From: an uncultured Alphaproteobacteria bacterium
GTDB taxonomy: Bacteria > Pseudomonadota > Alphaproteobacteria > Rs-D84
Assembly (NCBI GenBank): GCA_944392815.1
Contig: CALXXY010000004.1
Coordinates: 23,064-87,063, forward strand
Reading direction: 5' to 3'
DNA: 64,000 bases
Position 1 is the stretch's first letter, and every line of letters begins with the position of its first letter. Below the pieces are notes generated by a model that searched no databases, was not told where the DNA came from, and saw only the letters and a list, made by a program, of their open reading frames with translations. This document shows, in pieces, positions 25,213 to 64,000 of the stretch. The position numbers were made by a program, and so were the translations under genes.

Positions 25213-26637
25213 ATGTTGAAAAAATTGCTGGTTTTGGCGATGTTGATTACCCCGGTTGCCGCGTTTGCCGCGGACAAGCCCAAGGACGAGCCCGTGGAAC
25301 ACCTGACCGATGAACAGATTTATGAACAATTGAAAAAATTGGCGTTGGTGTTTGAAACTGCGCGCGATAATTTTGTAGAAGAGGCAGATGAAAAAAAGAT
25401 GTTAGAGGCCGCTATGAACGGCATGTTGCAGGCGTTGGACCCGCATTCGTCGTATTTGTCGGCCGATGATTTCAAGGAATTTAATGATAAATCCCAGGGT
25501 GAATTTGGGGGGCTGGGGATTCAGATTACCAGTGATCGTGGGGCTGTGCGCGTGATTTCGCCGATTGACGATACCCCTGCGGACAAGGCCGGAATCAAGG
25601 CAGGTGACTATATTACACATATTGATGATGAACCTGTGTTTGATTTAACCCTGAATCAGGCAACCAAAAAAATGAAGGGCCGCCCAGGTACCAAGGTAAA
25701 ATTAACCGTTATATCCGAGGGCCAAGAGCCGCGCACTATTACATTAAAGCGCGCCATTATCAAGGTCGAATCCGTTAAATACGAAGAAAAAAAGATGGCT
25801 GGATTCGAAGAGGACGAAGATGCCGATAAAATCGGATATGTTCGTATATCTGATTTTGGTGCCACCACGGCCAAGGAATTAAACAAAGCGTTGGAAAAGT
25901 TAGAAGACAAAGATGTTATCGGGTACGTGTTGGATGTGCGTAATAATCCGGGCGGATATCTGACTGCCGCGATTGATGTGGCCGATGCGTTCCTGGACGC
26001 GGGCGAAATTGTGTCCACGCGCGGGAAACGTCCTACTGATATAGAACGTAATTTTGCCAAGCCCGGTGATTTGGCCAATGGCAAGCCCGTTGTTGTGCTG
26101 ATAAATCATGGGTCTGCGTCGGCGTCTGAAATCGTGGCCGGGGCATTACAGGATAATGGGCGCGCGCTGGTCATGGGGTCGCAATCGTTTGGCAAAGGCA
26201 GCGTGCAACAGCAAAAGCCATTGGGCGATGGAACCGCGATTCATATAACTATTGCGCGGTATTATACGCCGTCTGGCCGTTCCATTCAGAACGAAGGTAT
26301 CACCCCAGATATAGAAGTGCTGCAGAGCAAGATAGAGGTTCTGGAACGTCGTGAAAGTTTGTATTCCGAGGCGTCTTTTAAAAATGCCCTGAAAAATGAA
26401 GAGGCCGAAAAGAAAGCCAAGAATAAATCTGATGATAACGAAGACGAAGAATTAACCGACGAAGAAAAAGATGCGCTGGATTATCAATTGCAACGTGCAA
26501 TGGATATGGTGCGGGCGATGTCCAAATTACAACAGCATGCCGATTTTGTACCGGCAACACCGGAAAGTGTGGCTGCGCTGGACGCTGAATTGGTGGACGG
26601 GGACGCGCCAGATGATGAAAAATCGGACGAAAAATAA
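25213..26637 (+). CDS. ctpA: Carboxy-terminal processing protease (S41A)
   Basis: LDPHS, PDZ GLGIQI, DVRNNPGG, GSASASE, FGKGSVQ. Confidence 0.97.
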   Translation: MLKKLLVLAMLITPVAAFAADKPKDEPVEHLTDEQIYEQLKKLALVFETARDNFVEEADEKKMLEAAMNGMLQALDPHSSYLSADDFKEFNDKSQGEFGGLGIQITSDRGAVRVISPIDDTPADKAGIKAGDYITHIDDEPVFDLTLNQATKKMKGRPGTKVKLTVISEGQEPRTITLKRAIIKVESVKYEEKKMAGFEEDEDADKIGYVRISDFGATTAKELNKALEKLEDKDVIGYVLDVRNNPGGYLTAAIDVADAFLDAGEIVSTRGKRPTDIERNFAKPGDLANGKPVVVLINHGSASASEIVAGALQDNGRALVMGSQSFGKGSVQQQKPLGDGTAIHITIARYYTPSGRSIQNEGITPDIEVLQSKIEVLERRESLYSEASFKNALKNEEAEKKAKNKSDDNEDEELTDEEKDALDYQLQRAMDMVRAMSKLQQHADFVPATPESVAALDAELVDGDAPDDEKSDEK

Positions 26638-26639
26638 CT

Positions 26640-26661
26640 AACCGGGGTTGACCCCGGTTTT
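26640..26661 (+). terminator. Intrinsic terminator
   Basis: AACCGGGG-TTGA-CCCCGGTTTT. Confidence 0.8.
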
Positions 26662-26759
26662 GTTTTGTCAAGTTTGTGATTGATTGATAAATCTTGCCTT
26701 GGGGTGAATTTCGGGGTATGATATAGCCCGTACGAAAATTTTTTTAAGGGAATAAAGAA

Positions 26760-29700
26760 ATGGCAAATTTAATTGTTGATGGAAACTGGGCCGCGGCCGA
26801 TGTCGCGTACAGATGTGTTGATTTTGCGGCTATTTATCCAATTACCCCCAGCAGTACTATGGGTGAATTGGCGGACGAATGGTCGTTCCAGCATAAAAAA
26901 AATATTTGGGGCGCAATCCCGCAAATAATCGAAATGCAGTCCGAGGGCGGTGCCGCTGGGGCTATGCACGGTGCGTTGCAAATGGGGTCGTTGGCGACAA
27001 CGTTTACTGCGTCCCAGGGATTGTTGCTGATGATTCCGAATATGTACAAAATCGCGGGTGAACAAACGCCGTTTGTTATGCATGTGGCGGCACGTGCGTT
27101 GGCGACGCATGCGTTGTCTATATTCGGCGACCACAGCGATGTTATGTCTGTGCGTTCAACTGGGTTCGCAATGTTGTCCAGTCACAATGTGCAACAGGCG
27201 CATGATATGGCGGCGATTTCGCATGCGGCCACATTGCGCGCGCGCGTACCGTTTTTGCATTTCTTTGACGGGTTCCGCACCAGTCACGAAGAATCGCGTT
27301 TGCTGCGAATTGACGACGATGTGTTGCGTGAAATGATTCCTGACGATTTGGTGTTGGCCAATCGGGCGCGCGGTATGTCGCCGGATCACCCGACTGTACG
27401 CGGAACCGCCCAGAATCCTGATGTGTTTTTCCAGGGACGCGAGGCCGCCAATCCGCTGTATATGAATACGCCAGGCGTTGTCCAGGAATGTATGGATAAA
27501 TTCGCAAAATTAACTGGACGGCAATATCATTTGGTGGATTATGTTGGTGATCCGAACGCTGAAAATGTTATCGTCGCAATGGGCAGTGCGTGCGAAACAA
27601 TCGAAGAAACACTGGCGCATTTGCCCGCGGGATTGGGATTGGTCAAAGTTCATTTGTTCCGCCCGTTCCCAACGGACGCATTTATGGCAGCGTTGCCTAA
27701 AACTGTGAAACGGATTGCGGTTCTGGACAGATGTAAAGAGCCCGGCAGTTTGGGTGAACCTTTGTACCAGGACGTTAAAACTGTTGTTGGTGACAGGGCT
27801 GCTGTGTTCGGTGGGCGATATGGGTTGGGTTCCAAAGAATTCAAACCACGCGATGTCAAGGCCGTGTATGAAAATCTGATGCGTGACACGTTGCACCATA
27901 ATTTTACCGTCGGTATCGAAGATGATTTGACGGGGCTGTCGCTGAAAACGGATCCCGCGTTCGCGGTCCAGGACCCAAATTTCAAAACTGCGATTTTGTA
28001 TGGTATTGGATCCGATGGTACGGTGGGGGCTGTAAAAAATATCGTAAAGATTGTCGGGGAAAATTCTGATTTGTATCCGCAATCGTATGCCGTTTATGAT
28101 TCAAAAAAATCAGGTGGGCTGACTGCGTCGCATATTCGTTTTTCTGATAAACCGATTAAAAGCCAATATTTAATAGAGGTTGCAGATTTTATCAGCGTTT
28201 CTAATTTCATGATTGCACAGCGTTTCGATGTGTTTCGTGGATTGCGCGCTGGTGGTACTGTGATGATTAACACTTCGATGGCGCCAGATGTGGCGTTTGC
28301 AAATCTGCCGCGTGATGCCCAGGAACATTTAATTCGTATGCATGCACGTGTGTTTTTCCTGAACGCAAATGCGGCCGCGGCGGAATTGGGACTGGGGAAC
28401 CGTATTAACACGTTTATCATGCTGAATTTCTTTAACCTGACGCATGTGATTGATCCGGCCACCGCCGCCAAAAGTGCCAAGGTCGCAATCGAAAAAACAT
28501 ATAAAAAGAAAGGTATGGATATCGTTCAGGCAAACTGGGCCGCAGTGGACAAGGCGGCCGAGTATCTGCACGAGTACACGTTGCCGTCATCTGTGTCTAA
28601 TTTTGCACCCGATTTTGTACCGGCAATGACCAGTGCAGCCCCAGTTGAAATCGCCGGAACGTTGGGTGAAATGGCCGCGCAACGTGGTGATGCGTTGCCT
28701 GTGTCGCGATTCCGTGTTGATGGTGAATTTGGGGCAGGGCAATATCCTGTGGGAACCGCAAAATATGAAAAGCGTGCAATTTCTGAACGTGTTGCGTCGG
28801 TGGATTTGTCAAAATGTATCCAGTGTGGAAAATGTTCGACACTGTGTCCGCATGCCGCAATTCGTATCAAGGCAATGACCCCAGACCAGGCCGAGGCCGC
28901 CCGTCGCGATGGTGTGATAGTGGTGCCAATGAAAACGCCTGAATTGGGGGCAGACATGTATTTCACGCTGAACATTTCGCCGGCGGATTGCACTGGGTGC
29001 AATGTTTGTGTGAAAAATTGCCCGGTCCAGGCATTGTCCATGATTGCAATGCAGGACGCCGGCGACCAACAAAAGCGTTTTGACGCGGCGCAAAACATTC
29101 CGGATATTCCACGTGAAAAATTAAATTTGAATATACCAAAGCATGTTGAACTGTTGCCGCATTATTTTGAATTCCCTGGGGCGTGCGCAGGGTGTGGGGA
29201 AACGCCGTATATTAAAATGATGTCGCACCTGTTTGGGGATCGTATGGTGGTGGCGAATGCAACGGGTTGTTCGTCAATATATGGGGCGAATTTGCCAACA
29301 ACACCATGGACAACGGACGCAAATGGACGCGGGCCTGCGTGGTCAAATTCGCTGTTCGAAGATAACGCCGAATATGGCCTGGGGATGCGAATCGCATTGA
29401 ATCAAAAACGTGATACTTTGCGGGGATTGTTGTTTGAATTAAACATTCCAAATGTCGAAGAAATGTTCGCAGAACGCGACCCTGACAAGCAGCGCGAAAT
29501 AGAATCAAAATTGCGCGCCCAATTGGAAAAAATGGATTCGCCACGTGCGGCCATGGCACGCAGTTTGGTTGGCGAAATCGTTGATAAATCTGTTTGGATT
29601 GTCGGCGGTGATGGTTGGGCATATGATATTGGATATGGCGGTTTGGACCACATTCTGCACAGTGGGGAAAATGTGAATATTCTGGTTTTGGATACCGAAG

Positions 29701-48870: not shown

Positions 48871-48947
48871 CGGGGCGTAGCTCAGTCTGGTAGAGTGCTT
48901 GCTTTGGGAGCAAGATGTCGAAGGTTCGAATCCTTTCGCCCCGACCA
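48871..48947 (+). tRNA. tRNA-Pro(TGG)
   Basis: CGGGGCGTAGCTCAGTCTGGTAGAGTG-CTTGC-TTTGGGA-GCAAG-ATGTCGAAGGTTCGAATCCTTTCGCCCCG-ACCA. Confidence 0.97.
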
Positions 48948-48974
48948 GAAAATTCAAACCGTCGCATTTGCGGC
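48941..48974 (+). repeat. attL-like direct repeat (tRNA 3' end plus terminator)
   Basis: CCGACCAGAAAATTCAAACCGTCGCATTTGCGGC; 32/34 identical to 63967-64000; terminator hairpin 48956-48979. Confidence 0.88.
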
Positions 48975-52998: not shown

Positions 52999-53937
52999 GT
53001 GCGTTTTATAGCTTTATTTTTAATGTTTTTACCTTTTACTGCCATGGCAGAGGTGTTGCCATTGTATGATGCACTACGTGGAACATATACTGCGTGCGTT
53101 GGTATTGATGAAGAACTGGCAGATTTAAAGAAAAAGGCAGGTATAAATACAGCGGTGACCGTTGTTGGAACGGCTACAGGTGTTGGAGCAACGGTTACTG
53201 GGGTAGTAAAGTCTTCTAAAGACAGTAAAATAGAATCGCTGGAGATTAAGCTAGAACAGCTGAGAGAAATAGAAAGTAAAAATCAGCAACAAGAAAGTGT
53301 AGAAAATAATTTTGATGCTTTTGCGTCAGAATTTGAGACGTCATATTCATCTATTGCACAACAGCTAAAAGATTATCAATCAGAGATAGACAAATTAACC
53401 GAGCAATCTAAAAATTTAGGTAATTGGCGTACAGGTTTATTGGCAGGTAGTACAGCGACGAATATAGCAGGTGCAGCGATATCTGGAACTAACAAAGTAA
53501 GTGCCGGCTTAAAAGAGCAGATAAATAGTTGTATATCAGCGGTTGATACGTTACAACAATCAATGATGCAGGCGCGATTAAATGGTGAAGATATAACGGA
53601 AGCGCAAAGAATAGTAGAAGCGTGTAAAGAATATGAATATGTAGATACATCAAAGATAGACAACAGGGCAAAAGGTGCAATGATATCTTCTGTTGTTGGG
53701 GCTACGACAGGATTAGCTGGTACGATAACATCAGCGACAGCAAATACTGACAAAACGCGTAATGATAATACAGCTTCAGGTAATCAGAAAGAAAAGAACT
53801 TAAATACGGCTTCAAATGTTTTATCTGGTGTAACGACGGTCGCATCAGCGACGGCTACGGGATTTAATGCAGCGCAGATATCAGCTATAAAGAAGGTTGC
53901 GGAAGTAGCGGAAAAATGCACGGGGGTACTGAAATGA
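52999..53937 (+). CDS. Secreted protein with G/A/T-rich hydrophobic hairpins and coiled coil
   Basis: Signal peptide; segments such as GINTAVTVVGTATGVGATVTGVV and GAMISSVVGATTGLAGTITSA; ATGA-coupled to next gene. Confidence 0.85.
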   Translation: MRFIALFLMFLPFTAMAEVLPLYDALRGTYTACVGIDEELADLKKKAGINTAVTVVGTATGVGATVTGVVKSSKDSKIESLEIKLEQLREIESKNQQQESVENNFDAFASEFETSYSSIAQQLKDYQSEIDKLTEQSKNLGNWRTGLLAGSTATNIAGAAISGTNKVSAGLKEQINSCISAVDTLQQSMMQARLNGEDITEAQRIVEACKEYEYVDTSKIDNRAKGAMISSVVGATTGLAGTITSATANTDKTRNDNTASGNQKEKNLNTASNVLSGVTTVASATATGFNAAQISAIKKVAEVAEKCTGVLK

Positions 53938-56900
53938 AAAGACTTCTGGTAGCATTTTTTATGATTTTAATAGTTGTTCCTTCCTATGCAGAAAACTGGA
54001 TAAGGTTTAAGAGTGAAGTTGTTGAAAAGGCAATAAATCAACTGGTGGCCAGTGAAAGACGTCAGGCTGCCGCGGATGAGTATCAGAAAAATATGGATCA
54101 AACGAATGGGAAAATATCTGTTACAGGTATATATAAAGTATGTATAGCATCTGGTTTTAATATACAGACAAATGATGGTTATAACCTATGCCGGAATTTT
54201 CTGAACTTTATGATGTCTGAATCAAAATTTGGGACAGGGAGCGCGACACAACAAAATTGTGCTAATAAGTTTAATGGTATTTGGACATTAAGTGCGGATG
54301 GGAATAAGTATCAATGTGTTGGACGTGATGGTTATGAATTGGTGTATAAGAGGTCATGTAGCGGTGCAGGAGGGGAGTGTATAAAACAATTTGCTGATTT
54401 GCAAACCCAGGGGTCAAACGGTCGTGAATTTATAAATGCATATGGAAAATTACATGGCCTGAATTTGACGTGCCATTCTGTTACAGAAACCAGACGCAGT
54501 GTTGCCAATCCATTGGGCCAAGATTATATAAAATGCAGTGCCGGTGGTCGGGCATACGAATTTGAATTTGATGATTTAAATCAGACCCCCGGCGACAAAT
54601 CGTCCCACAGTGAAAATACTGCGATATGCGAATTATACGGTGGCAAAATAGTTGACACCGGTGACAAGAATACAGAATCCATTTGGCAGTCTTGCGATAT
54701 ATCCAGTGAATTGTGTAATGGTGCTGTTGCTGATTTGGCAATGCGTACGGGACATACAGTTCAATATCAGGGTTATTGCCGTTTATCACGGAAAGCAAAG
54801 GTGGTTTCTGTTGTTGACTTGCACCAGATAGATGGCATAGACAGTCGTATATTTTATAATGCTGGGGCCCAGATGCGCATGGATACGGCAAAGCCGATGG
54901 TTGAAGAGTATTTGCGTACCCAATTCCCAAATGAAACATATATCGTATGCGATACCAATCCACGGGAATTAAACCGGGGGTTGGGGGTGGATATTGATTA
55001 TGTAATGTCGTGCACGGTTGGCGCGCAACGTGTTGATTTTGTATTTGATGATTTAAGTGAAAGTTTTGATTCCGATGCCGCAACCGGCATGGACATAATG
55101 CAATGTATTATAAATGGTGGCACGTTTAAAGGGGAAAGTTGTCGTGGTCCAACGAAGGAAGAATGTGAAAAATTGGATGCCGTATTACGCTCCAAAGGAT
55201 CTGATAAAGGAGCAAGATATGATGATGAAGCTCGTGCGTGTATATTGGGTAATGCAGAAGCTACGTATAAACGTGATGTTAGGGTTGGGTATGTTACAGG
55301 CGCAGTTGTGATTGTTGGCGGGGCGCTTGTTACAATTGGCACTGGTGGCGCTGCGGGACCTGTGGTGGTAAACGGTGTAGCTATGTTGGCTGGTGACATC
55401 GCGATAAACTATGCAATAGATGCAAATCATCAGCGTTTAACGAACAAAGCAGCAAAGAAGTTTGTAAATTTTGTGACTGATGCGGACGCGTGTACAACTG
55501 AACAGTGTGCACTAGATGTGTTGGAAAAGCATTATGCGACATTATCTGGCGTTATGATTGATTTGAATACTGATGACCAAGCGGTTGTTGATGAAACAAT
55601 GGACAAGTTGATAGGATTAATAAAGACCGAATTTGTTGCGTGTGGCAAGGATGATTCAGGCAAGACGATTTATGCGAGTCCGGCAGATTGTGCAATGCAA
55701 CAATCGCATCTAAAATTGATGGATTATATTGACCCGGTGTCTGAACCTGTTTTGATTATAGGAAGTATTGCATATAACCCAGGTTATGTAACAAACAAAT
55801 TTATGAAACTCAAAAAAGTCAGCAAATTGGCAAAATTTAATGATACGACGGATGCAGCAGTTGTCGCAGGCAGCAAAATAAAGAACCCAAAACAATGGAA
55901 GCCCGGCGAAGATGTTGCAGAATATATGGATGTTGAAAAGTTACAGTCAAAATTTGATGATATTGACAAACGGCATGCGGCTTATTTGGATGAATTGAAA
56001 CAGCGTAAAGAGAATTTGGAACAACTGAAATATAGCACACCTGCACAAACTGATGAACAAAAGGCACTAGCGAATGTTGCTTTTGATGAGTATGAAAAAC
56101 GACTAACACAGTTGGTAGAGAAAAATATGGATGAGTCGGCAGAGTATAACAAAGTAAAAGATGAAATCAGTTCATACAGAACCCAAATAAAAAATGAACA
56201 CCGAGCAGAGCTTGATAAATTAGAGACAAATGGTGATTATGTTGCATATATTTCGAAGTTTGAAGAATATGAAACTGATTTGTCCAAATCCTCTCCAGAA
56301 TTTGCGGCATTACTAAAAAGAGAAGAAGAGCTTGGTGCCAAATATGAAAAAACAAAGGAAATAATAGAATCATCATCTGACGACGTTGATTTACTACGAT
56401 TAAAACAAGAATATCAGACAGCCTCTAATGCAAAATCTCCTGCATACGAAGCTGTTCTAAATGAACAAGCATTTGTTGATGAGTTGATTCTTGATACAGA
56501 GAGAACAATAGGCGATGAAAAAAATGTTGCGTTATGGGATGCAATACCAAATGAAATCAAACAAAAATTGCCAGAAATTCGCGATAACGAAATTGTAGAA
56601 ATCCTAGCAAAAGACGACATGCTAACACATTATGTAAACAATTTTGACGAGGTTAGTAAAAACACAGAGTTGTATGATGATTTTTTGTCTCGTATAGCTC
56701 ATGGTTTCAATGGCAAACACAATATGTCAACCCCGGTCTCAATAAGCACATATAACAACCCTCATGCGCCACTGACGGGGGGACAAGCTGTAGGAAGTAA
56801 CATTCAATTCAACTCCGCCAGAAGTAATTATGTCGATTTAGATGGCACGATAGGAGTCGTAAAACATGAGGTAGGACATGTTATAGATAAGTATGCGCCA

Positions 56901-57209
56901 AACGATGGAATAATAGGCGAAACCTTACAAGCTATGGATACATGGACTTCACACGGAAATTACGACGAGCATTTTACAGTGGCGATTTCTCCATCTGGAT
57001 TAAACAGTTTTAGCGTTGGGGGAATTACTCCAGAGCAAACCAAATTATTAGAAACTGAAGGTTGGAAAATTATGGAAACAACAGATATAGATACTTATAC
57101 CAAATATAGAGCAAAACCAACTGAAAAAAGCTCATGGTCTATTACACCCACTTCTAACATCAAACAAAAGGTAAATTCGTATCGTGAGGCTAATGGCGTT
57201 ACGAAATAA
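53934..57209 (+). CDS. Large secreted multidomain protein with C-terminal HExxH zincin motif
   Basis: Signal peptide, two DY..C..G....F.FDDL repeats, TM hairpin, coiled coil, VKHEVGH. Confidence 0.85.
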   Translation: MKRLLVAFFMILIVVPSYAENWIRFKSEVVEKAINQLVASERRQAAADEYQKNMDQTNGKISVTGIYKVCIASGFNIQTNDGYNLCRNFLNFMMSESKFGTGSATQQNCANKFNGIWTLSADGNKYQCVGRDGYELVYKRSCSGAGGECIKQFADLQTQGSNGREFINAYGKLHGLNLTCHSVTETRRSVANPLGQDYIKCSAGGRAYEFEFDDLNQTPGDKSSHSENTAICELYGGKIVDTGDKNTESIWQSCDISSELCNGAVADLAMRTGHTVQYQGYCRLSRKAKVVSVVDLHQIDGIDSRIFYNAGAQMRMDTAKPMVEEYLRTQFPNETYIVCDTNPRELNRGLGVDIDYVMSCTVGAQRVDFVFDDLSESFDSDAATGMDIMQCIINGGTFKGESCRGPTKEECEKLDAVLRSKGSDKGARYDDEARACILGNAEATYKRDVRVGYVTGAVVIVGGALVTIGTGGAAGPVVVNGVAMLAGDIAINYAIDANHQRLTNKAAKKFVNFVTDADACTTEQCALDVLEKHYATLSGVMIDLNTDDQAVVDETMDKLIGLIKTEFVACGKDDSGKTIYASPADCAMQQSHLKLMDYIDPVSEPVLIIGSIAYNPGYVTNKFMKLKKVSKLAKFNDTTDAAVVAGSKIKNPKQWKPGEDVAEYMDVEKLQSKFDDIDKRHAAYLDELKQRKENLEQLKYSTPAQTDEQKALANVAFDEYEKRLTQLVEKNMDESAEYNKVKDEISSYRTQIKNEHRAELDKLETNGDYVAYISKFEEYETDLSKSSPEFAALLKREEELGAKYEKTKEIIESSSDDVDLLRLKQEYQTASNAKSPAYEAVLNEQAFVDELILDTERTIGDEKNVALWDAIPNEIKQKLPEIRDNEIVEILAKDDMLTHYVNNFDEVSKNTELYDDFLSRIAHGFNGKHNMSTPVSISTYNNPHAPLTGGQAVGSNIQFNSARSNYVDLDGTIGVVKHEVGHVIDKYAPNDGIIGETLQAMDTWTSHGNYDEHFTVAISPSGLNSFSVGGITPEQTKLLETEGWKIMETTDIDTYTKYRAKPTEKSSWSITPTSNIKQKVNSYREANGVTK

Positions 57210-57322: not shown

Positions 57323-57843
57323 TCAGAAATATTTTTCTATTCCTTGGCGGAACTGGTCGGTAAATATCGTTTTGAAATACGACCAATCGTTCTGCTCGTA
57401 AAATATATCATGCCTTTCTTATATTCTATCTCGTCCGCACTGCGATATGATAACGGACAATAGTCAGCAGCCAACAATAATGCATTTCCAACCGTACGTG
57501 CTGTGCGCTTGTTTCCGTCTTCAAACGGTTGGATATACGAAATCAGCAATGTGTCGCCTCCACCAACATATATGATATCAGTGTTATCTAAAATTTTTCG
57601 AATATTATCTATGGTCGGAGGATTGTTGATTAAACGCAGTTCTGAAACATTAGCCCCCAAGGATTGAAAATGCGTTATCAGGAAATCTGTATAAGACGGC
57701 AAATCGTTGTCTTGCAGAGCCTTTTTAATGTCTGGGTCTTCGTATTCCCACGCCAAAAAAGCAATCATTAGCGCCTGGTTAAAGCGCTGTCTGAATTTTG
57801 TGTTTTTCCAAGTAAAATCAAAAAACTTATCAAAGTTATTCAT
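57323..57843 (-). pseudogene. Chimeric remnant: peptidase E (S51) 5' part fused to Fic 3' part, frameshifted
   Basis: DIIYVGGGDT then directly YIQPFEDGNKRTAR; a 1-nt frameshift near 57400 restores YEQNDWSYFKTIFTDQFRQGIEKYF*. Confidence 0.8.
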
Positions 57844-57901: not shown

Positions 57902-58010
57902 AAAAAAACGGGGCTTGCGCCCCAGGGGATCCGTAATTGGTTTACCCCACAGAAAATATTCTTTATTATATAAACGGTTGCTTCTCAAATCGTCCGTTGA
58001 ATAAAGATTT
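57902..58010 (-). ncRNA. tracrRNA
   Basis: 19-nt anti-repeat at 57976-57994; minus strand GACGATTTGAGAAGCAACCGTTTATATAATAAAGAATATTTTCTGTGGGGTAAACCAATTACGGATCCCCTGGGGCGCAAGCCCCGTTTTTTT ends in hairpin plus U-tract; 5' end approximate. Confidence 0.88.
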
Positions 58011-58113
58011 CTATGAGAGATATGTTATATTAAACTTATTTGTTTTTCAAGTTTTTTTATTGCTTTTTTGCTAATGTTTTATACCATATGAAAAACGATG
58101 CACGGAGTTAAAA

Positions 58114-61044
58114 ATGTCAAAGATTTTTGGGTTTGATTTAGGTGTTGCTAGTATTGGCTGGGCTGTTGTGGAATTGCCAGATGTTCCAGATAATGTTGTT
58201 CTGGATGAAAGTAATAGGCTTGAAGGTAAAATTTTGGGTGCCGGGGTGCGTTGTTTTGATACCGCACTTAATGGTCAAGATCGCAGAAATGCAAGGTCAA
58301 TGCGCCGTAGAATACGTCATCGTGCGCAAAGAATGCGTGAAATACGTGCTTTATTAAGAAGTGAAGGGCTGATAGATATTCCAGAACCAAAACATAACGG
58401 TCATAACAATTTTTATCTGAATAAAGATATAGATGAAAATATTTGGAAACTACGTGCGGTTTCTGCATTTGAACGCCCTTTGAATCAACGAGAAGTTGGG
58501 AGAATTTTATATCATTTGGCTAAGCATCGTGGATATGATGATATTACTTATCCGATAGCACAGGGCGAAGTCAAAGAAAAAGACGGGGAAAAGAGTTCCG
58601 ACGAATTAAAAGCTACTGGATGTATAAAAGATAATCTTTTGCTTTTGAATCAAGAAGGCAATTCTAATAAAACAATGTGTCAGGTTTTATATGCTAAAAA
58701 CCCGAAACAAATGCGTAATCATAAAAATGTTGTTGCGAAAAAGACAAAAAATGGAGAAATAAAATATTCTGAGGAGGCAACGTATACGAATTCTATTCCG
58801 CGTTCGGAAATAAAGCGTGAAGCAGAAATGATTTTGCACGCACAAAAAACTTTCGGAAACGATTTTTCAGATTTGTTTGAAAAATGGGAAAAAATCGCTT
58901 TTCGTCAACGTAAGTTCAATGAATCTGGCTCGCCGATGGCAAAGTCTGTTGATGAAATGCGTGGTCGTTGCATCTTTACAAATGAACCTGTCGCGCCGAA
59001 AGAAGCACCAACAGCTCAGTTGTTTGTTGCGCTTAGTAAATGTAATCAGAATGGTTTTAGTGCCGAACAGATAAAAAAAGTTATAGATGCATTGTATAAG
59101 AAAAAGACAGGTTTATCTTATGCAGATGTAAGAAAGTTGTTGGATTATGATGGTCCGTTTGCCACTTTGAATTACAAGCGTGAATATGACAAAGAAACCA
59201 AGAAATGGTTAGAGCCAGATATAAAAAAGATAGAAAAAGAAAAGTTTGCAACGTTTACCGGATATCATAAATTATGCGATTTTACAGACAATTTGTCTGA
59301 TATGGATAAAATATTTGAAATTATTGCCACGCAAAAAACGCAAAAAAATATAGAGCAAGAAGTTTCAAAGATTTGCCCAGAACACGCAAAACAAATTTCA
59401 GAAATTACAACGTCAAAATTCTTGAATTTATCTCTGACTGCATTGCGTACGCTGGTTCCAGAAATGGAACAGGGAAAGTCATACAGTCAAGCCTGTGAAG
59501 CTCGTGGCTGGAATCATCGGACCTCTGGCGAATCTTTTGTTGATATAACAGACGAAGTTCAGCCGGGATATTTGCGTCGTATAAATTGGGTAAAATTGGG
59601 AAATCGTGTAACTTCACCGGTCGTGAAACGTACACTTTCGCAAATGCATAAAGTCTATAATGCGATGTTTTATCGCTATGGTTGCCCTGATAGAGTTCAT
59701 TTAGAAATTGGTAGGGAATTAAAAAAATCCCCAGATGATATCGCTCGTATAAACAGAGAAATTGAAAAAAATAGAAAAGCCAATGAAGAAGCATATAAGG
59801 AGTATGGAAAACATTTTCACAAGTATAAGCTGTACATGGAACAAAGTGGTCAGTGTATATATTGCGGAAAAAAGTTAGAGGCTGGCTTGTGGGATGCATA
59901 CGAGATAGACCATATTCTGCCATATTCACGTTCTTTGGACAATTCGCAGTCTAATAAAGTTTTGGTCTGTCGCGAATGTAATCAGCGCAAGGGGAATAAA
60001 ACACCGTACGAATTTATGTCAAATCAGGAATTCTTTGAAATGACTGTTCGGGCTCGTGCTTTGAATAATTCAGCAAAATTTAGAAAATTGACGAATATTG
60101 ATTTGCCTTCATCGTATGATGAAAAAAATGACTTTATTGCAAGAAATGCAAATGATAATGCTACAATTGCACGTTTTGCCAGTCAGTATTTAGAGCAGGG
60201 GATTGATTGGGGAAAAGATAATAAAAAACATATATTGGTGCGAACAGGTGCTTTGACAGATTATTTGCGGCATCAGTGGGGATTGGAAAAATCACGTGAA
60301 GAATCAGACAAGCATCATGCCCAAGACGCGATAGTTATTGCTTGTGCAACGCAAGACATGGTCAGATATTTGGCGACATTGTCTGCAAAATTCGAAAATA
60401 AATGGGCTTTGATTGGCGAAAATGGGGAAGCTTGGTATAAACAGTTAAAGAAGTCTATATCAGAACCTTGGACTAATTTCAGGGCAGATGTTTTGTCTTG
60501 TTTGGATTCAGTGTTTGTTTCGCGTCCACCGCGTTGTAATGCAACTGGGCAAGCACATAACGAAACAATTTGTGGAAAAATGAATTCTTACAATACCAAG
60601 AAAAATAGGAACTTGAAAAAGAATCGTGGTGGTGGCACCTTAAATGTTCGTTTTGGTAAGGCTGATCGTGGCAATATGTTCCGTTTTGATATATGGAAAC
60701 AGAAAAACGGAAAACACAAGTGCGTTCCTGTATATGTTTCTGATTTAGTTGAAAAAAACGATGCAAAATTTATAGTCGCAGATGCTGAATTTGTATGTAC
60801 TTTGCACAAGGATGATTATGTAAAGTTAACAACACGTAAAGGCGAAGTTTTTGAAGGCTATATAACTCAAATGGATCATGGCACTAATTTTATTTTATAC
60901 AGACAAGATAATAGCAAGGTACAGGTTGTAAAAAAATCTGTTGGTGAATGCGAAAAAATTGAAAAGTATTCTGTGACTTTGTTGGGAAATAAAAAGTTGG
61001 TCAGATTGCCAGAAAAAAGACAACCCGTTGTAAAAAGTAAATAG
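58114..61044 (+). CDS. cas9: Type II-C Cas9 (976 aa)
   Basis: RuvC-I GFDLGVASIGWA, Arg-rich bridge helix, RuvC-II HLEIGRE, HNH EIDHILPYSRSLDNS..NKVL...CNQRKGNKTP, RuvC-III HHAQDA. Confidence 0.98.
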   Translation: MSKIFGFDLGVASIGWAVVELPDVPDNVVLDESNRLEGKILGAGVRCFDTALNGQDRRNARSMRRRIRHRAQRMREIRALLRSEGLIDIPEPKHNGHNNFYLNKDIDENIWKLRAVSAFERPLNQREVGRILYHLAKHRGYDDITYPIAQGEVKEKDGEKSSDELKATGCIKDNLLLLNQEGNSNKTMCQVLYAKNPKQMRNHKNVVAKKTKNGEIKYSEEATYTNSIPRSEIKREAEMILHAQKTFGNDFSDLFEKWEKIAFRQRKFNESGSPMAKSVDEMRGRCIFTNEPVAPKEAPTAQLFVALSKCNQNGFSAEQIKKVIDALYKKKTGLSYADVRKLLDYDGPFATLNYKREYDKETKKWLEPDIKKIEKEKFATFTGYHKLCDFTDNLSDMDKIFEIIATQKTQKNIEQEVSKICPEHAKQISEITTSKFLNLSLTALRTLVPEMEQGKSYSQACEARGWNHRTSGESFVDITDEVQPGYLRRINWVKLGNRVTSPVVKRTLSQMHKVYNAMFYRYGCPDRVHLEIGRELKKSPDDIARINREIEKNRKANEEAYKEYGKHFHKYKLYMEQSGQCIYCGKKLEAGLWDAYEIDHILPYSRSLDNSQSNKVLVCRECNQRKGNKTPYEFMSNQEFFEMTVRARALNNSAKFRKLTNIDLPSSYDEKNDFIARNANDNATIARFASQYLEQGIDWGKDNKKHILVRTGALTDYLRHQWGLEKSREESDKHHAQDAIVIACATQDMVRYLATLSAKFENKWALIGENGEAWYKQLKKSISEPWTNFRADVLSCLDSVFVSRPPRCNATGQAHNETICGKMNSYNTKKNRNLKKNRGGGTLNVRFGKADRGNMFRFDIWKQKNGKHKCVPVYVSDLVEKNDAKFIVADAEFVCTLHKDDYVKLTTRKGEVFEGYITQMDHGTNFILYRQDNSKVQVVKKSVGECEKIEKYSVTLLGNKKLVRLPEKRQPVVKSK

Positions 61045-61101: not shown

Positions 61102-62016
61102 ATGTCTTGGCGTGTTCTTACCTTGACCAATCCTGGTCGTGTTTGTGTTAAACACAGGCAACTGAATTGGACAGATGAGGCAGGTAATATTCAAAATATT
61201 CCAATAGAAGATATTTCTGTCTTGATCATAGAAAATCCATATATACAAATTTCTTCTGCGGTGTTGGCGGATTTGGCGGCGGCAGGGGCGGTTGTTTTTA
61301 CTTGTGATTCTTCACATTTGCCAAATGGTGCATTGTTTCCATTTCATAACAATTCCAGATATACAGAAAGTGCTTTTGCACAAATAGAATCTTCTTTGCC
61401 ATTTCGTAAGCGTATGTGGCAAGAAATAGTAGTGCAAAAAATAAAAAATCAATCAGCAATTTTAAGATTGGTTGGATCTGGGGCGTATAAAAATTTGGAT
61501 ATACTGGCCAACAGTGTTCAGTCTGGTGATTGTCAAAACATAGAAGGTGTTGCAGCACGTGTATATTGGGGTGCTTTGTGGGAAAAATTTAACAGGAATG
61601 ATATTTCAAATGTAAAAAATCATGCGCTGGATTACGCTTATGCTGTTTTGCGTGGGTGTGTTGCAAGGTGTGTGGTTGGGGCGGGCTTGCTGCCGTTTTA
61701 TGGTATTCATCATTGTAATAAGTTAGATAATTTTTGTTTAGTTGATGATTTGATAGAACCTTGGCGTCCTTTTGCAGATTTTGTAGTTAATAAAATTGAT
61801 TGGACTACAAATGATTCTTTGACTCCGCAAATTAAACAACGCTTGATATCTGTATTGCTGCATGGATGTAATTTTAATGGAAAACAACATTCTATATTGA
61901 ATGCTATGCCGTTGTATGCGGAATCAGTTGCAAGTTGTTTTAAAAATAAAACATTAAAGAATTTGAAATTGCCGACTATTAAATCAGAACCACAGATAAT
62001 AAATACACAGAATTAA
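61102..62016 (+). CDS. cas1: CRISPR-associated Cas1 (type II)
   Basis: IPIEDI, EGVAARVYW, N.ALDYAYAVLRG, GIHH...DDLIEP. Confidence 0.97.
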   Translation: MSWRVLTLTNPGRVCVKHRQLNWTDEAGNIQNIPIEDISVLIIENPYIQISSAVLADLAAAGAVVFTCDSSHLPNGALFPFHNNSRYTESAFAQIESSLPFRKRMWQEIVVQKIKNQSAILRLVGSGAYKNLDILANSVQSGDCQNIEGVAARVYWGALWEKFNRNDISNVKNHALDYAYAVLRGCVARCVVGAGLLPFYGIHHCNKLDNFCLVDDLIEPWRPFADFVVNKIDWTTNDSLTPQIKQRLISVLLHGCNFNGKQHSILNAMPLYAESVASCFKNKTLKNLKLPTIKSEPQIINTQN

Positions 62017-62018
62017 CC

Positions 62019-62351
62019 ATGAAATATAAATATCAGGAAAAGTTTATGCGAATAATAGTATTTTTTGATTTGCCAGTCAGCACAAAAAAGGAACGGTATT
62101 ATGCAACGCGGTTCAGAAATGATTTGTTGAACGATGGCTATTATATGATGCAGTTTTCTGTTTATTCGCGGATGGTAAAGGGGCTTGCGGATGCAGAAAA
62201 GCATATTCAAAGATTGCATAACTTAACCCCGCCATCTGGTTCTGTTCGTGTTTTAACGGTTACAGAAAAACAATTTGCTGATATGTTTTTTCTGGTTGGA
62301 CAACCGCCACAGGCAGAAAAAATCGGAACACAGCAACTATTAATGTTTTGA
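62019..62351 (+). CDS. cas2: CRISPR-associated Cas2
   Basis: FMRIIVFFDLP, YYMMQFSVYSR, LTVTEKQF; no csn2 or cas4 follows. Confidence 0.97.
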   Translation: MKYKYQEKFMRIIVFFDLPVSTKKERYYATRFRNDLLNDGYYMMQFSVYSRMVKGLADAEKHIQRLHNLTPPSGSVRVLTVTEKQFADMFFLVGQPPQAEKIGTQQLLMF

Positions 62352-62416: not shown

Positions 62417-62444
62417 AAAAACCCACAAAAAACTGTGGGTTATT
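62417..62444 (-). terminator. Terminator for minus-strand array transcripts
   Basis: Minus strand AATA-ACCCACA-GTTTTT-TGTGGGT-TTTT. Confidence 0.6.
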
Positions 62445-62452
62445 GTTCGTCT

Positions 62453-63280
62453 ATTATATCAAAGACGATTTGAGAAGCAACCTATAACATACCAACTGAC
62501 CCCGGTGTCTTTGTTATAATTATATCAAAGACGATTTGAGAAGCAACCTATAACAATCGCTATTCTGGATTAAATCGTCATCTGATTATATCAAAGACGA
62601 TTTGAGAAGCAACCTATAACGCTATATACCAACAAATACGACACTTTGTAATTATATCAAAGACGATTTGAGAAGCAACCTATAACTATTCTGATACAAA
62701 GTTCCATAATCTCGTCATTATATCAAAGACGATTTGAGAAGCAACCTATAACAAAAAAGGGGATTCGGTTTTGTATGCAAATATTATATCAAAGACGATT
62801 TGAGAAGCAACCTATAACATACCAATGAATAACCTTTCATACCAACTTATTATATCAAAGACGATTTGAGAAGCAACCTATAACCCTGATTTTTTGTTTG
62901 TGTATCGTGTTGCGATTATATCAAAGACGATTTGAGAAGCAACCTATAACAGAGGCAACCGGCCAACCGCTGGACATATTATTATATCAAAGACGATTTG
63001 AGAAGCAACCTATAACAACAGCAACGTGTTTATCAACGCTTGCAATATTATATCAAAGACGATTTGAGAAGCAACCTATAACGCGGTTAAATCGATCGTC
63101 AAGGGCAAGATTATTATATCAAAGACGATTTGAGAAGCAACCTATAACGCATAAACAACCGAATCGCCCTTTTTATGAATTATATCAAAGACGATTTGAG
63201 AAGCAACCTATAACTTAAATCGTATGGTATTTGATTTTATGAAAATTATATCAAAGACGATTTGAGAAGCAACCTATAGA
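62453..63280 (-). CRISPR. CRISPR array: 13 repeats of 36 bp, 12 spacers of 30 bp
   Basis: Repeat on + ATTATATCAAAGACGATTTGAGAAGCAACCTATAAC every 66 bp from 62453 to 63245; last copy ends ...TATAGA (degenerate); crRNA orientation GTTATAGG...TGATATAAT. Confidence 0.99.
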
Positions 63281-63966: not shown

Positions 63967-64000
63967 CCGACCAGAAAATCCAACCCGTCGCATTTGCGGC
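63967..64000 (+). repeat. attR-like direct repeat (truncated by window end)
   Basis: CCGACCAGAAAATCCAACCCGTCGCATTTGCGGC, 2 mismatches vs 48941-48974. Confidence 0.88.

Follow-up and report, generated by a model that had tools for sequence, protein, structure and literature searches.

Does the small Cas9 encoded by an uncultured alphaproteobacterium serve a working immune system, and is it a new enzyme? The gene (58114-61044, plus strand) lies in a stretch of 64,000 nucleotides (nt) of contig CALXXY010000004.1, assembly GCA_944392815.1, called the window below, and it encodes a protein of 976 residues. An earlier note on this DNA had described a very compact, active Cas9 with intact catalytic sites, small enough for adeno-associated virus (AAV) and with an unknown protospacer-adjacent motif (PAM). 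With a probability of roughly 0.88 we read it as the RNA-guided double-stranded DNA endonuclease of a complete and functional type II-C CRISPR locus, in a bacterium with a genome of about 0.93 Mb. It is a new member of the known II-C family, with good indirect evidence for its function and a computational lead to its PAM.

The Cas9 protein and its size

The gene starts with an ATG codon, with a GGAG 8 nt upstream, and its assignment as a type II-C cas9 draws on the reading frame, the Pfam and NCBIfam matches, the fold and the ratio of nonsynonymous to synonymous substitution rates (dN/dS). Pfam finds HNH_4, RuvC_III and Cas9_RuvC, and the NCBIfam equivalog model for Cas9 (TIGR01865, cas_Csn1) covers residues 4-971 with 565.6 bits against a cut-off of 100. 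The RuvC catalytic residues are D8 (in FDLGVAS), E531 (HLEIGRE), H735 and D738 (both in HHAQDA), and those of HNH are H600 (EIDHILP) and N623 (CNQRKGN). The protein thus has what defines a Cas9: a split RuvC-like domain with an inserted HNH domain and the full catalytic set. All six residues are invariant in a family alignment of 35 sequences that reaches down to 38% identity, and the earlier claim of an intact Cas9 with RuvC D/E/H/D and HNH H/N residues holds. The enzyme is intact and very probably active.

The small size can be traced to one part of the protein. In HMMER alignments residues 3-794 pair with residues 11-784 of the Nme1Cas9 chain and with 9-775 of HpaCas9, so the RuvC, bridge-helix, recognition (REC) and HNH parts are full-sized. 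A reduced REC lobe is ruled out as the cause, since the match to Nme1 over this range is one-to-one. Further, a beta domain resembling a PAM-interacting (PI) domain, at about 841-972, aligns with residues 938-1069 of Nme and, weakly, with 906-1054 of Hpa. About 50 residues separate RuvC-III from the PI domain here, against about 130-150 in Hpa and Nme. The alignments therefore put the small size down to this segment of about 50 residues, a predicted minimal wedge region.

How small is such an enzyme in comparison with others? Natural Cas9s reportedly range from about 1000 to 1600 residues (PMC7606464), and newly mined enzymes described as compact II-C have 1074-1092 (bioRxiv 10.64898/2026.08.17.745178). 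The type II-D Cas9d, which is also compact and RNA-guided and has the nuclease domains RuvC and HNH, has only 747 residues and is already characterized, structures included (PMC11706934, PMC9755519). The protein in the window is not a Cas9d, because it scores 167 bits with the Cas9d model NF049971, below the cut-off of 375. Its 976 residues are at the low end for subtypes II-A, II-B and II-C; this is no size record, as the Cas9d enzymes are far smaller, and neither is it unusual within its own clade. Calling it very compact therefore goes too far: the same alphaproteobacterial clade holds dozens of Cas9s of 943-1004 residues. That it is slightly shorter than CjCas9 (984 residues) is numerically correct, but a gap of 8 residues has no practical meaning. 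The claim that it can be packaged into AAV stands, with a gene of 2.9 kb that is within the AAV limits, as for other II-C enzymes.

Among solved structures the best fold match is Nme1Cas9 (PDB 6JDQ, 6KC8), aligned from RuvC-I through RuvC-III. In Foldseek 6jdq is the top match, with an E-value of 4.5e-50, a template modeling (TM) score of 0.60 and 26% identity, and it indicates the bilobed Cas9 fold. Next in rank are ThermoCas9, HpaCas9 and GeoCas9, all at about 25% identity and with TM scores of 0.59-0.66. These enzymes (HpaCas9, PDB 8HNT; ThermoCas9/GeoCas9, 9AR6 and 8JTJ) differ in having 1055-1087 residues, 24-26% identity and other repeat and tracrRNA (trans-activating CRISPR RNA) sequences. 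Nme1 has 106 residues more, nearly all of them after RuvC-III and before the PI domain (about 150 residues there, about 50 in the protein of the window).

Could it nevertheless be a close orthologue of a characterized compact Cas9, either CjCas9 or a published metagenomic enzyme, and thus already be known? CjCas9 (PDB 5X2G) shares the size class, the II-C subtype and the suitability for AAV, Cj4Cas9 has 985 residues (PMC12868821), and large PAM catalogs such as CRISPR-PAMdb exist (PMC12996302). However, CjCas9 is much more distant than the Nme group: it comes at rank 27 in Foldseek with 19% identity, and in phmmer its E-value is 3.6e-46, against 3e-81 for Hpa and Nme. These values do not support membership of the CjCas9 clade. 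Searches of structures, protein databases and full-text literature, with patents and CRISPR-PAMdb outside their scope, gave no near-identical characterized orthologue. Solved structures reach about 25% identity at best (Nme1, Thermo, Hpa), and all homologues above 45% are unnamed metagenomic proteins. An already known enzyme is therefore highly improbable. The protein is a II-C Cas9 of the Nme type whose wedge region is minimal, and it is no relative of CjCas9.

The CRISPR locus and its RNAs

The complete locus has the order tracrRNA (minus strand), cas9, cas1, cas2, hairpin and array. The cas1 gene (61102-62016, plus strand) encodes 304 residues of the type II NMENI subtype (TIGR03639, 258 bits against a cut-off of 120; Pfam Cas_Cas1), and cas2 (62019-62351, plus strand) encodes 110 residues (TIGR01573, 81.5 bits; Pfam CRISPR_Cas2). 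Neither csn2, typical of II-A, nor cas4, typical of II-B, is found between cas9 and the start of the array at 62453, where the gaps are too short for them. With cas9-cas1-cas2 and neither of these two genes the locus belongs to subtype II-C. Between cas2 and the array there is a hairpin (62420-62441) that is terminator-like on both strands, with a T-run on the minus strand.

In the array (62453-63280, minus strand) 12 spacers, all exactly 30 nt long, alternate with 13 repeats of 36 nt, so that the earlier description of it as regular was right. Twelve of the repeats are identical, and 2 changes set the cas-distal one apart. Only when the array is read on the minus strand is the anti-repeat complementary to the repeat, which fixes the orientation. 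In this sense, that of the CRISPR RNA (crRNA), the repeat is GTTATAGGTTGCTTCTCAAATCGTCTTTGATATAAT, beginning with GUUAUAGGUUGCUUCUCAAAUCGUC. Each repeat ends in TGATATAAT, which by direct reading is the extended -10 consensus TGnTATAAT.

Promoters inside the repeats are on record for II-C systems, and in N. meningitidis and C. jejuni the crRNAs start inside each spacer without the help of RNase III (PMC8616872). From our own reading of TGnTATAAT we infer such a repeat-internal promoter here. As the extended -10 box ends the repeat in the same way as in Neisseria and Campylobacter, the crRNAs probably start inside the neighboring spacer and would carry about 23-24 nt of guide.

The tracrRNA gene, of about 113 nt, is encoded on the minus strand at 57902-58014, divergently and upstream of cas9. 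Its elements are the anti-repeat (ACGGACGAUUUGAGAAGCAACC...UAUAAU), one small hairpin, the GGGG/CCCC stem and, called at 57924-57909, an intrinsic terminator made of GGGGCGCAAGCCCC and U7. Its 5' end is a predicted one, placed by the onset of conservation and by -10-like boxes. Repeat and anti-repeat pair in a perfect duplex of 19 base pairs and, across a 5-nt bulge, in a second one of 6 base pairs. When the repeat is joined to the tracrRNA by GAAA the chimera folds with z = -7.9, and three more hairpins follow the duplex, the last being GGGGCGCAAGCCCC and U7. Given the tracrRNA by itself, RNAalifold pairs the anti-repeat internally, a result that says nothing about the crRNA-bound state and was set aside.

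The tracrRNA gene is kept upstream of cas9 in 8 lineages. Among them the GGGG/CCCC stem shows one compensatory change from GC to AU, and the terminators have entirely different sequences, each still forming a hairpin with a U-run. The tracrRNA is nearly identical across lineages down to 65% Cas9 identity, and so is the 36-nt repeat, identical even in lineages whose Cas9 is just 65% identical, with two changes in one of them (G285).

In general the locus resembles that of Nme: both have cas9-cas1-cas2 without csn2 or cas4, repeats of 36 nt, spacers of 30 nt, an extended -10 box at the repeat end and an array that is read towards the cas genes. It differs in having the tracrRNA upstream of cas9.

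The proposed course of events is as follows. Short crRNAs would be started within the neighboring spacer by the -10 box at the repeat end, and would consist of a guide of about 23-24 nt and then the repeat. The repeat would pair with the anti-repeat of the tracrRNA, and Cas9 would bind this duplex, locate DNA that matches the guide beside a 3' PAM, tentatively NNNNGNNNA, and cut it by HNH (H600/N623) and RuvC (D8/E531/H735/D738). Cas1 and Cas2 would extend the array with new spacers at its cas2-proximal end, and in nature the system would be directed at tailed phages and at small Microviridae from the guts of animals.

Directly upstream of the tracrRNA there is an open reading frame of 1097 residues (53916-57209) with no Pfam match, and one of 168 residues on the minus strand (57337-57843) with weak matches to Peptidase_S51 and Fic. 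At the same position a sister lineage, whose Cas9 is 87% identical, carries a methyltransferase, DpnII, a KAP NTPase and GmrSD. Since the contents differ between the two, this position is a variable defence-island slot.

Targets and the protospacer-adjacent motif

What do the spacers match? Window spacers W5 and W11 overlap on opposite strands, and a degenerate pattern made from the two was used for the phage search, followed by identity look-ups. The pattern led to a contig of 6.9 kb from the same BRZ study (CALVMH010000056.1, L090), and extension by identity led to phage contigs of about 51 kb with portal, major capsid, tail and DnaB genes. Four of the 12 window spacers match about 200 bp of a single phage gene of 144 residues: W1 with 27/30, W5 with 26/30, W6 with 25/30 and W11 with 28/30. 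The studies that supplied these phage contigs (BRZ_, ONAT22-1 and ERR4096... records) also supplied the contigs that carry this cas9. The clustering suggests a strong acquisition hot spot in this gene.

The phage gene is of unknown function (region 7651-8085 of L091), and the array positions of the four spacers lie within 62489-63244. W1 and W6 overlap by 10 nt, while W5 and W11 represent the same site on opposite strands in two sequence variants. The contig CALVMH010000056.1 is a fragment of the targeted phage of about 51 kb, yet it was placed in an "uncultured Clostridia" metagenome-assembled genome (MAG) and is probably mis-binned.

A second group of targets came from BLAST of the spacers against GenBank phages. 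The single matches were marginal, and every one lay in the replication-initiator gene of a small microvirus (Microviridae) from animal feces. We then scanned seven genomes of the mg7_25 clade (MN379645, OM869494, PQ006644, PQ007294, PQ007303, MG945584, MG945252) and a more distant eighth one (PQ006608). On these 8 microviruses 13 of the 110 family spacers gave 35 matches of at least 22/30, against 0-4 in 20 shuffles. It is the arrays of sister lineages that match these small viruses of the gut. One more match, of W9 to MT836735 (26/30), was left out as unconfirmed, with a flank off the motif. In IMG/VR there was no match to exact patterns (spacers L2_15, W1 and W8 and the consensus of W5 and W11) or to the Rep protein of the microviruses, and that consensus gave no match among the JGI metagenome contigs either.

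When the spacers were concatenated and compared by BLAST with 328 genomes from the order, most of the matches were marginal. One of 28/30 was an artefact spanning the junction of two concatenated spacers, and for that reason shuffled-spacer controls were used in the later scans. The two arrays L002 and L010 are otherwise identical but carry different, related spacers at position 11 (GTACGCCGGCAGGTTCCAGTGCAACTATGT and GTTTCCGGTCTGGTTGCAGTGCAAATGTAT), which represent the same microvirus site from two virus variants.

The flanks of the protospacers provide a lead to the PAM. In crRNA sense the 3' flanks are CAATGCGAA for W11, GAACGTTTA for W1, ATGCGCGAA for W5 and TAGTGCGAA for W6. Counts were made over 12 independent protospacers of Cas9s that are at least 83% identical, and over 17 protospacers overall. 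G at +5 is found in 9 of the 12 (p ~9e-5; 11/17 overall) and A at +9 in 11 (p ~1.5e-5; 15/17 overall), while G at +8 does not occur in any of the 12. The window's own four protospacers all have both G at +5 and A at +9, and three of them read GCGAAT from +5 to +10. The 5' flanks show no base bias. From this alignment the PAM is tentatively 5'-NNNNGNNNA-3', and for the enzyme of the window it may be longer, given the GCGAAT of its three protospacers.

The PI domains of the window and its sisters are only 84.6% identical, and an unverified transfer of the sister-lineage PAM was rejected for this reason; the window's own four protospacers later agreed with it. A counter-example is L2_10, which matches 28/30 on an integrase-bearing contig of 2.4 kb with neither G at +5 nor A at +9, and which was kept in the counts. 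For the PAM, which the earlier note gave as unknown, there is thus now NNNNGNNNA as a tentative lead, obtained in silico only.

Nme1Cas9 recognizes N4GATT and CjCas9 N4RYAC. The tentative PAM has the G at position 5 in common with Nme1, but A at +9 where Nme1 has ATT at +6 to +8. If it really is NNNNGNNNA, it has two fixed bases and is less restrictive than either.

Selection, spread and meaning of the locus

Is the locus still in use? Pairwise comparison of cas9 between the window and the sister lineages at 87% and 83% identity gives dN/dS values of 0.06-0.08, and the PI domain alone gives 0.09-0.10 for the same pairs. The gene is under purifying selection. This and the biased 3' flanks of the protospacers are the indirect evidence that the protein cuts double-stranded DNA in an RNA-guided and PAM-dependent way. 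In the 87% lineage the arrays have a common core and, at the cas2-proximal end, one to three extra spacers (L011 has more than L008 and L009, which have more than L002), so acquisition in that lineage is polarised and recent. None of the 12 window spacers matches its own genome.

Several observations weigh against a functional locus as we read it. In the window lineage the array is identical in 6 of 6 samples, and thus there is no sign of recent acquisition there. All protospacer matches are imperfect, with 2-8 mismatches, and the flanks are therefore those of sequences related to the true targets. A generic two-hexamer scan for sigma-70 promoters did not flag the repeats, because their -35 element is poor (3/6). 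Finally, the AlphaFold2 model of Cas9 is of moderate quality only, with a predicted local distance difference test (pLDDT) of 75 and a predicted TM score (pTM) of 0.51, and its confidence is lowest, indeed poor, over residues 817-848, exactly in the segment before the PI domain that is short in this protein.

The constant array of these six independent samples would also be expected if the locus only looked intact and were immunologically frozen or decaying, with Cas9 kept for gene regulation, in the manner of small CRISPR-associated RNA (scaRNA) or long-form tracrRNA (tracr-L), and not for phage defence. Interference-only remnants do exist in the genus, as the sister species G061 keeps cas9, tracrRNA and a mini-array of two spacers without cas1 and cas2. 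In the window, however, both cas1 and cas2 are intact, the nuclease residues are all invariant, and dN/dS is low for the whole gene (about 0.07) and for the PI domain (0.10). In addition, the spacers have matches, with a flank like a PAM, in phages that co-occur, and no spacer is self-targeting. We consider a frozen locus quite improbable, and a complete and functional immune locus remains our reading.

The locus of G061 (contig C14, about 25714-29000; L046/L079) has an intact cas9 of 974 residues, 66% identical to that of the window, and a tracrRNA. Right after these two comes the mini-array, which has two full repeats and one degenerate repeat, and there is no cas1 or cas2 within 5.4 kb. It looks like an interference-only remnant.

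How widespread is this Cas9? In the protein databases there are close copies at 97, 87 and 83% identity, and next come proteins of 960-1004 residues at 61-68%. After a gap follow many Cas9s of about 1000 residues at 35-45%, some of them with 943-945, and where these carry labels they are Rickettsiales or Alphaproteobacteria MAGs. The genome of the window has 927 kb in 18 contigs and is 96.8% complete. Its genus comprises 257 species genomes of 0.6-1.1 Mb, and 27 of them (about 10%) have a Cas9, from four unrelated lineages. By identity to the Cas9 of the window, 3 are close, 7 are at 65-66%, about 7 at 46-48% (1024-1033 residues) and about 10 at 26-33% (mostly 1100-1137 residues). With so few carriers, and with identities that fall in separate groups, the genus has a patchy distribution of Cas9s, and their origin is mixed. 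Further, the 83% copy has a genomic neighborhood completely different from that of the window, and the 87% copy has only the downstream neighborhood in common with it.

The 3' end of a tRNA-Pro gene and its downstream hairpin (CCGACCAGAAAATTCAAACCGTCGCATTTGCGGC) are found at 48871-48974, and 32/34 nt are repeated at 63967-64000, just after ppa. The two copies enclose about 15 kb, including the whole CRISPR-Cas locus, and the right-hand copy continues beyond the window. This copy is present in the window-lineage samples L014 and L016, and absent in the 87% lineage despite the same downstream genes.

We offer one wider proposal tentatively, and on balance regard it as doubtful. The Cas9s of about 960-1000 residues may form an uncharacterized II-C clade of gut Alphaproteobacteria with tiny genomes that is unusual in three respects: repeat and tracrRNA would stay identical while the proteins diverge by 35%, the wedge between RuvC-III and PI would be nearly deleted, and the PAM would be split into two bases, G at +5 with A at +9. 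In this genome the whole module would also be cargo on an island of about 15 kb, with a serine recombinase, between tRNA-Pro repeats, i.e. a mobile and interchangeable cassette.

The understanding of how Cas9 works is unchanged by this locus. If the enzyme is active, it is one more Cas9 of AAV size, with a guide scaffold that is ready-made, as tracrRNA and repeat are defined. The locus also points to probable phages of this uncultured group of hosts: a tailed phage of about 51 kb and microviruses similar to mg7_25. For the biology of these organisms it means that a complete adaptive immune module is still retained, and apparently also exchanged, by bacteria whose genomes measure about 0.9 Mb.

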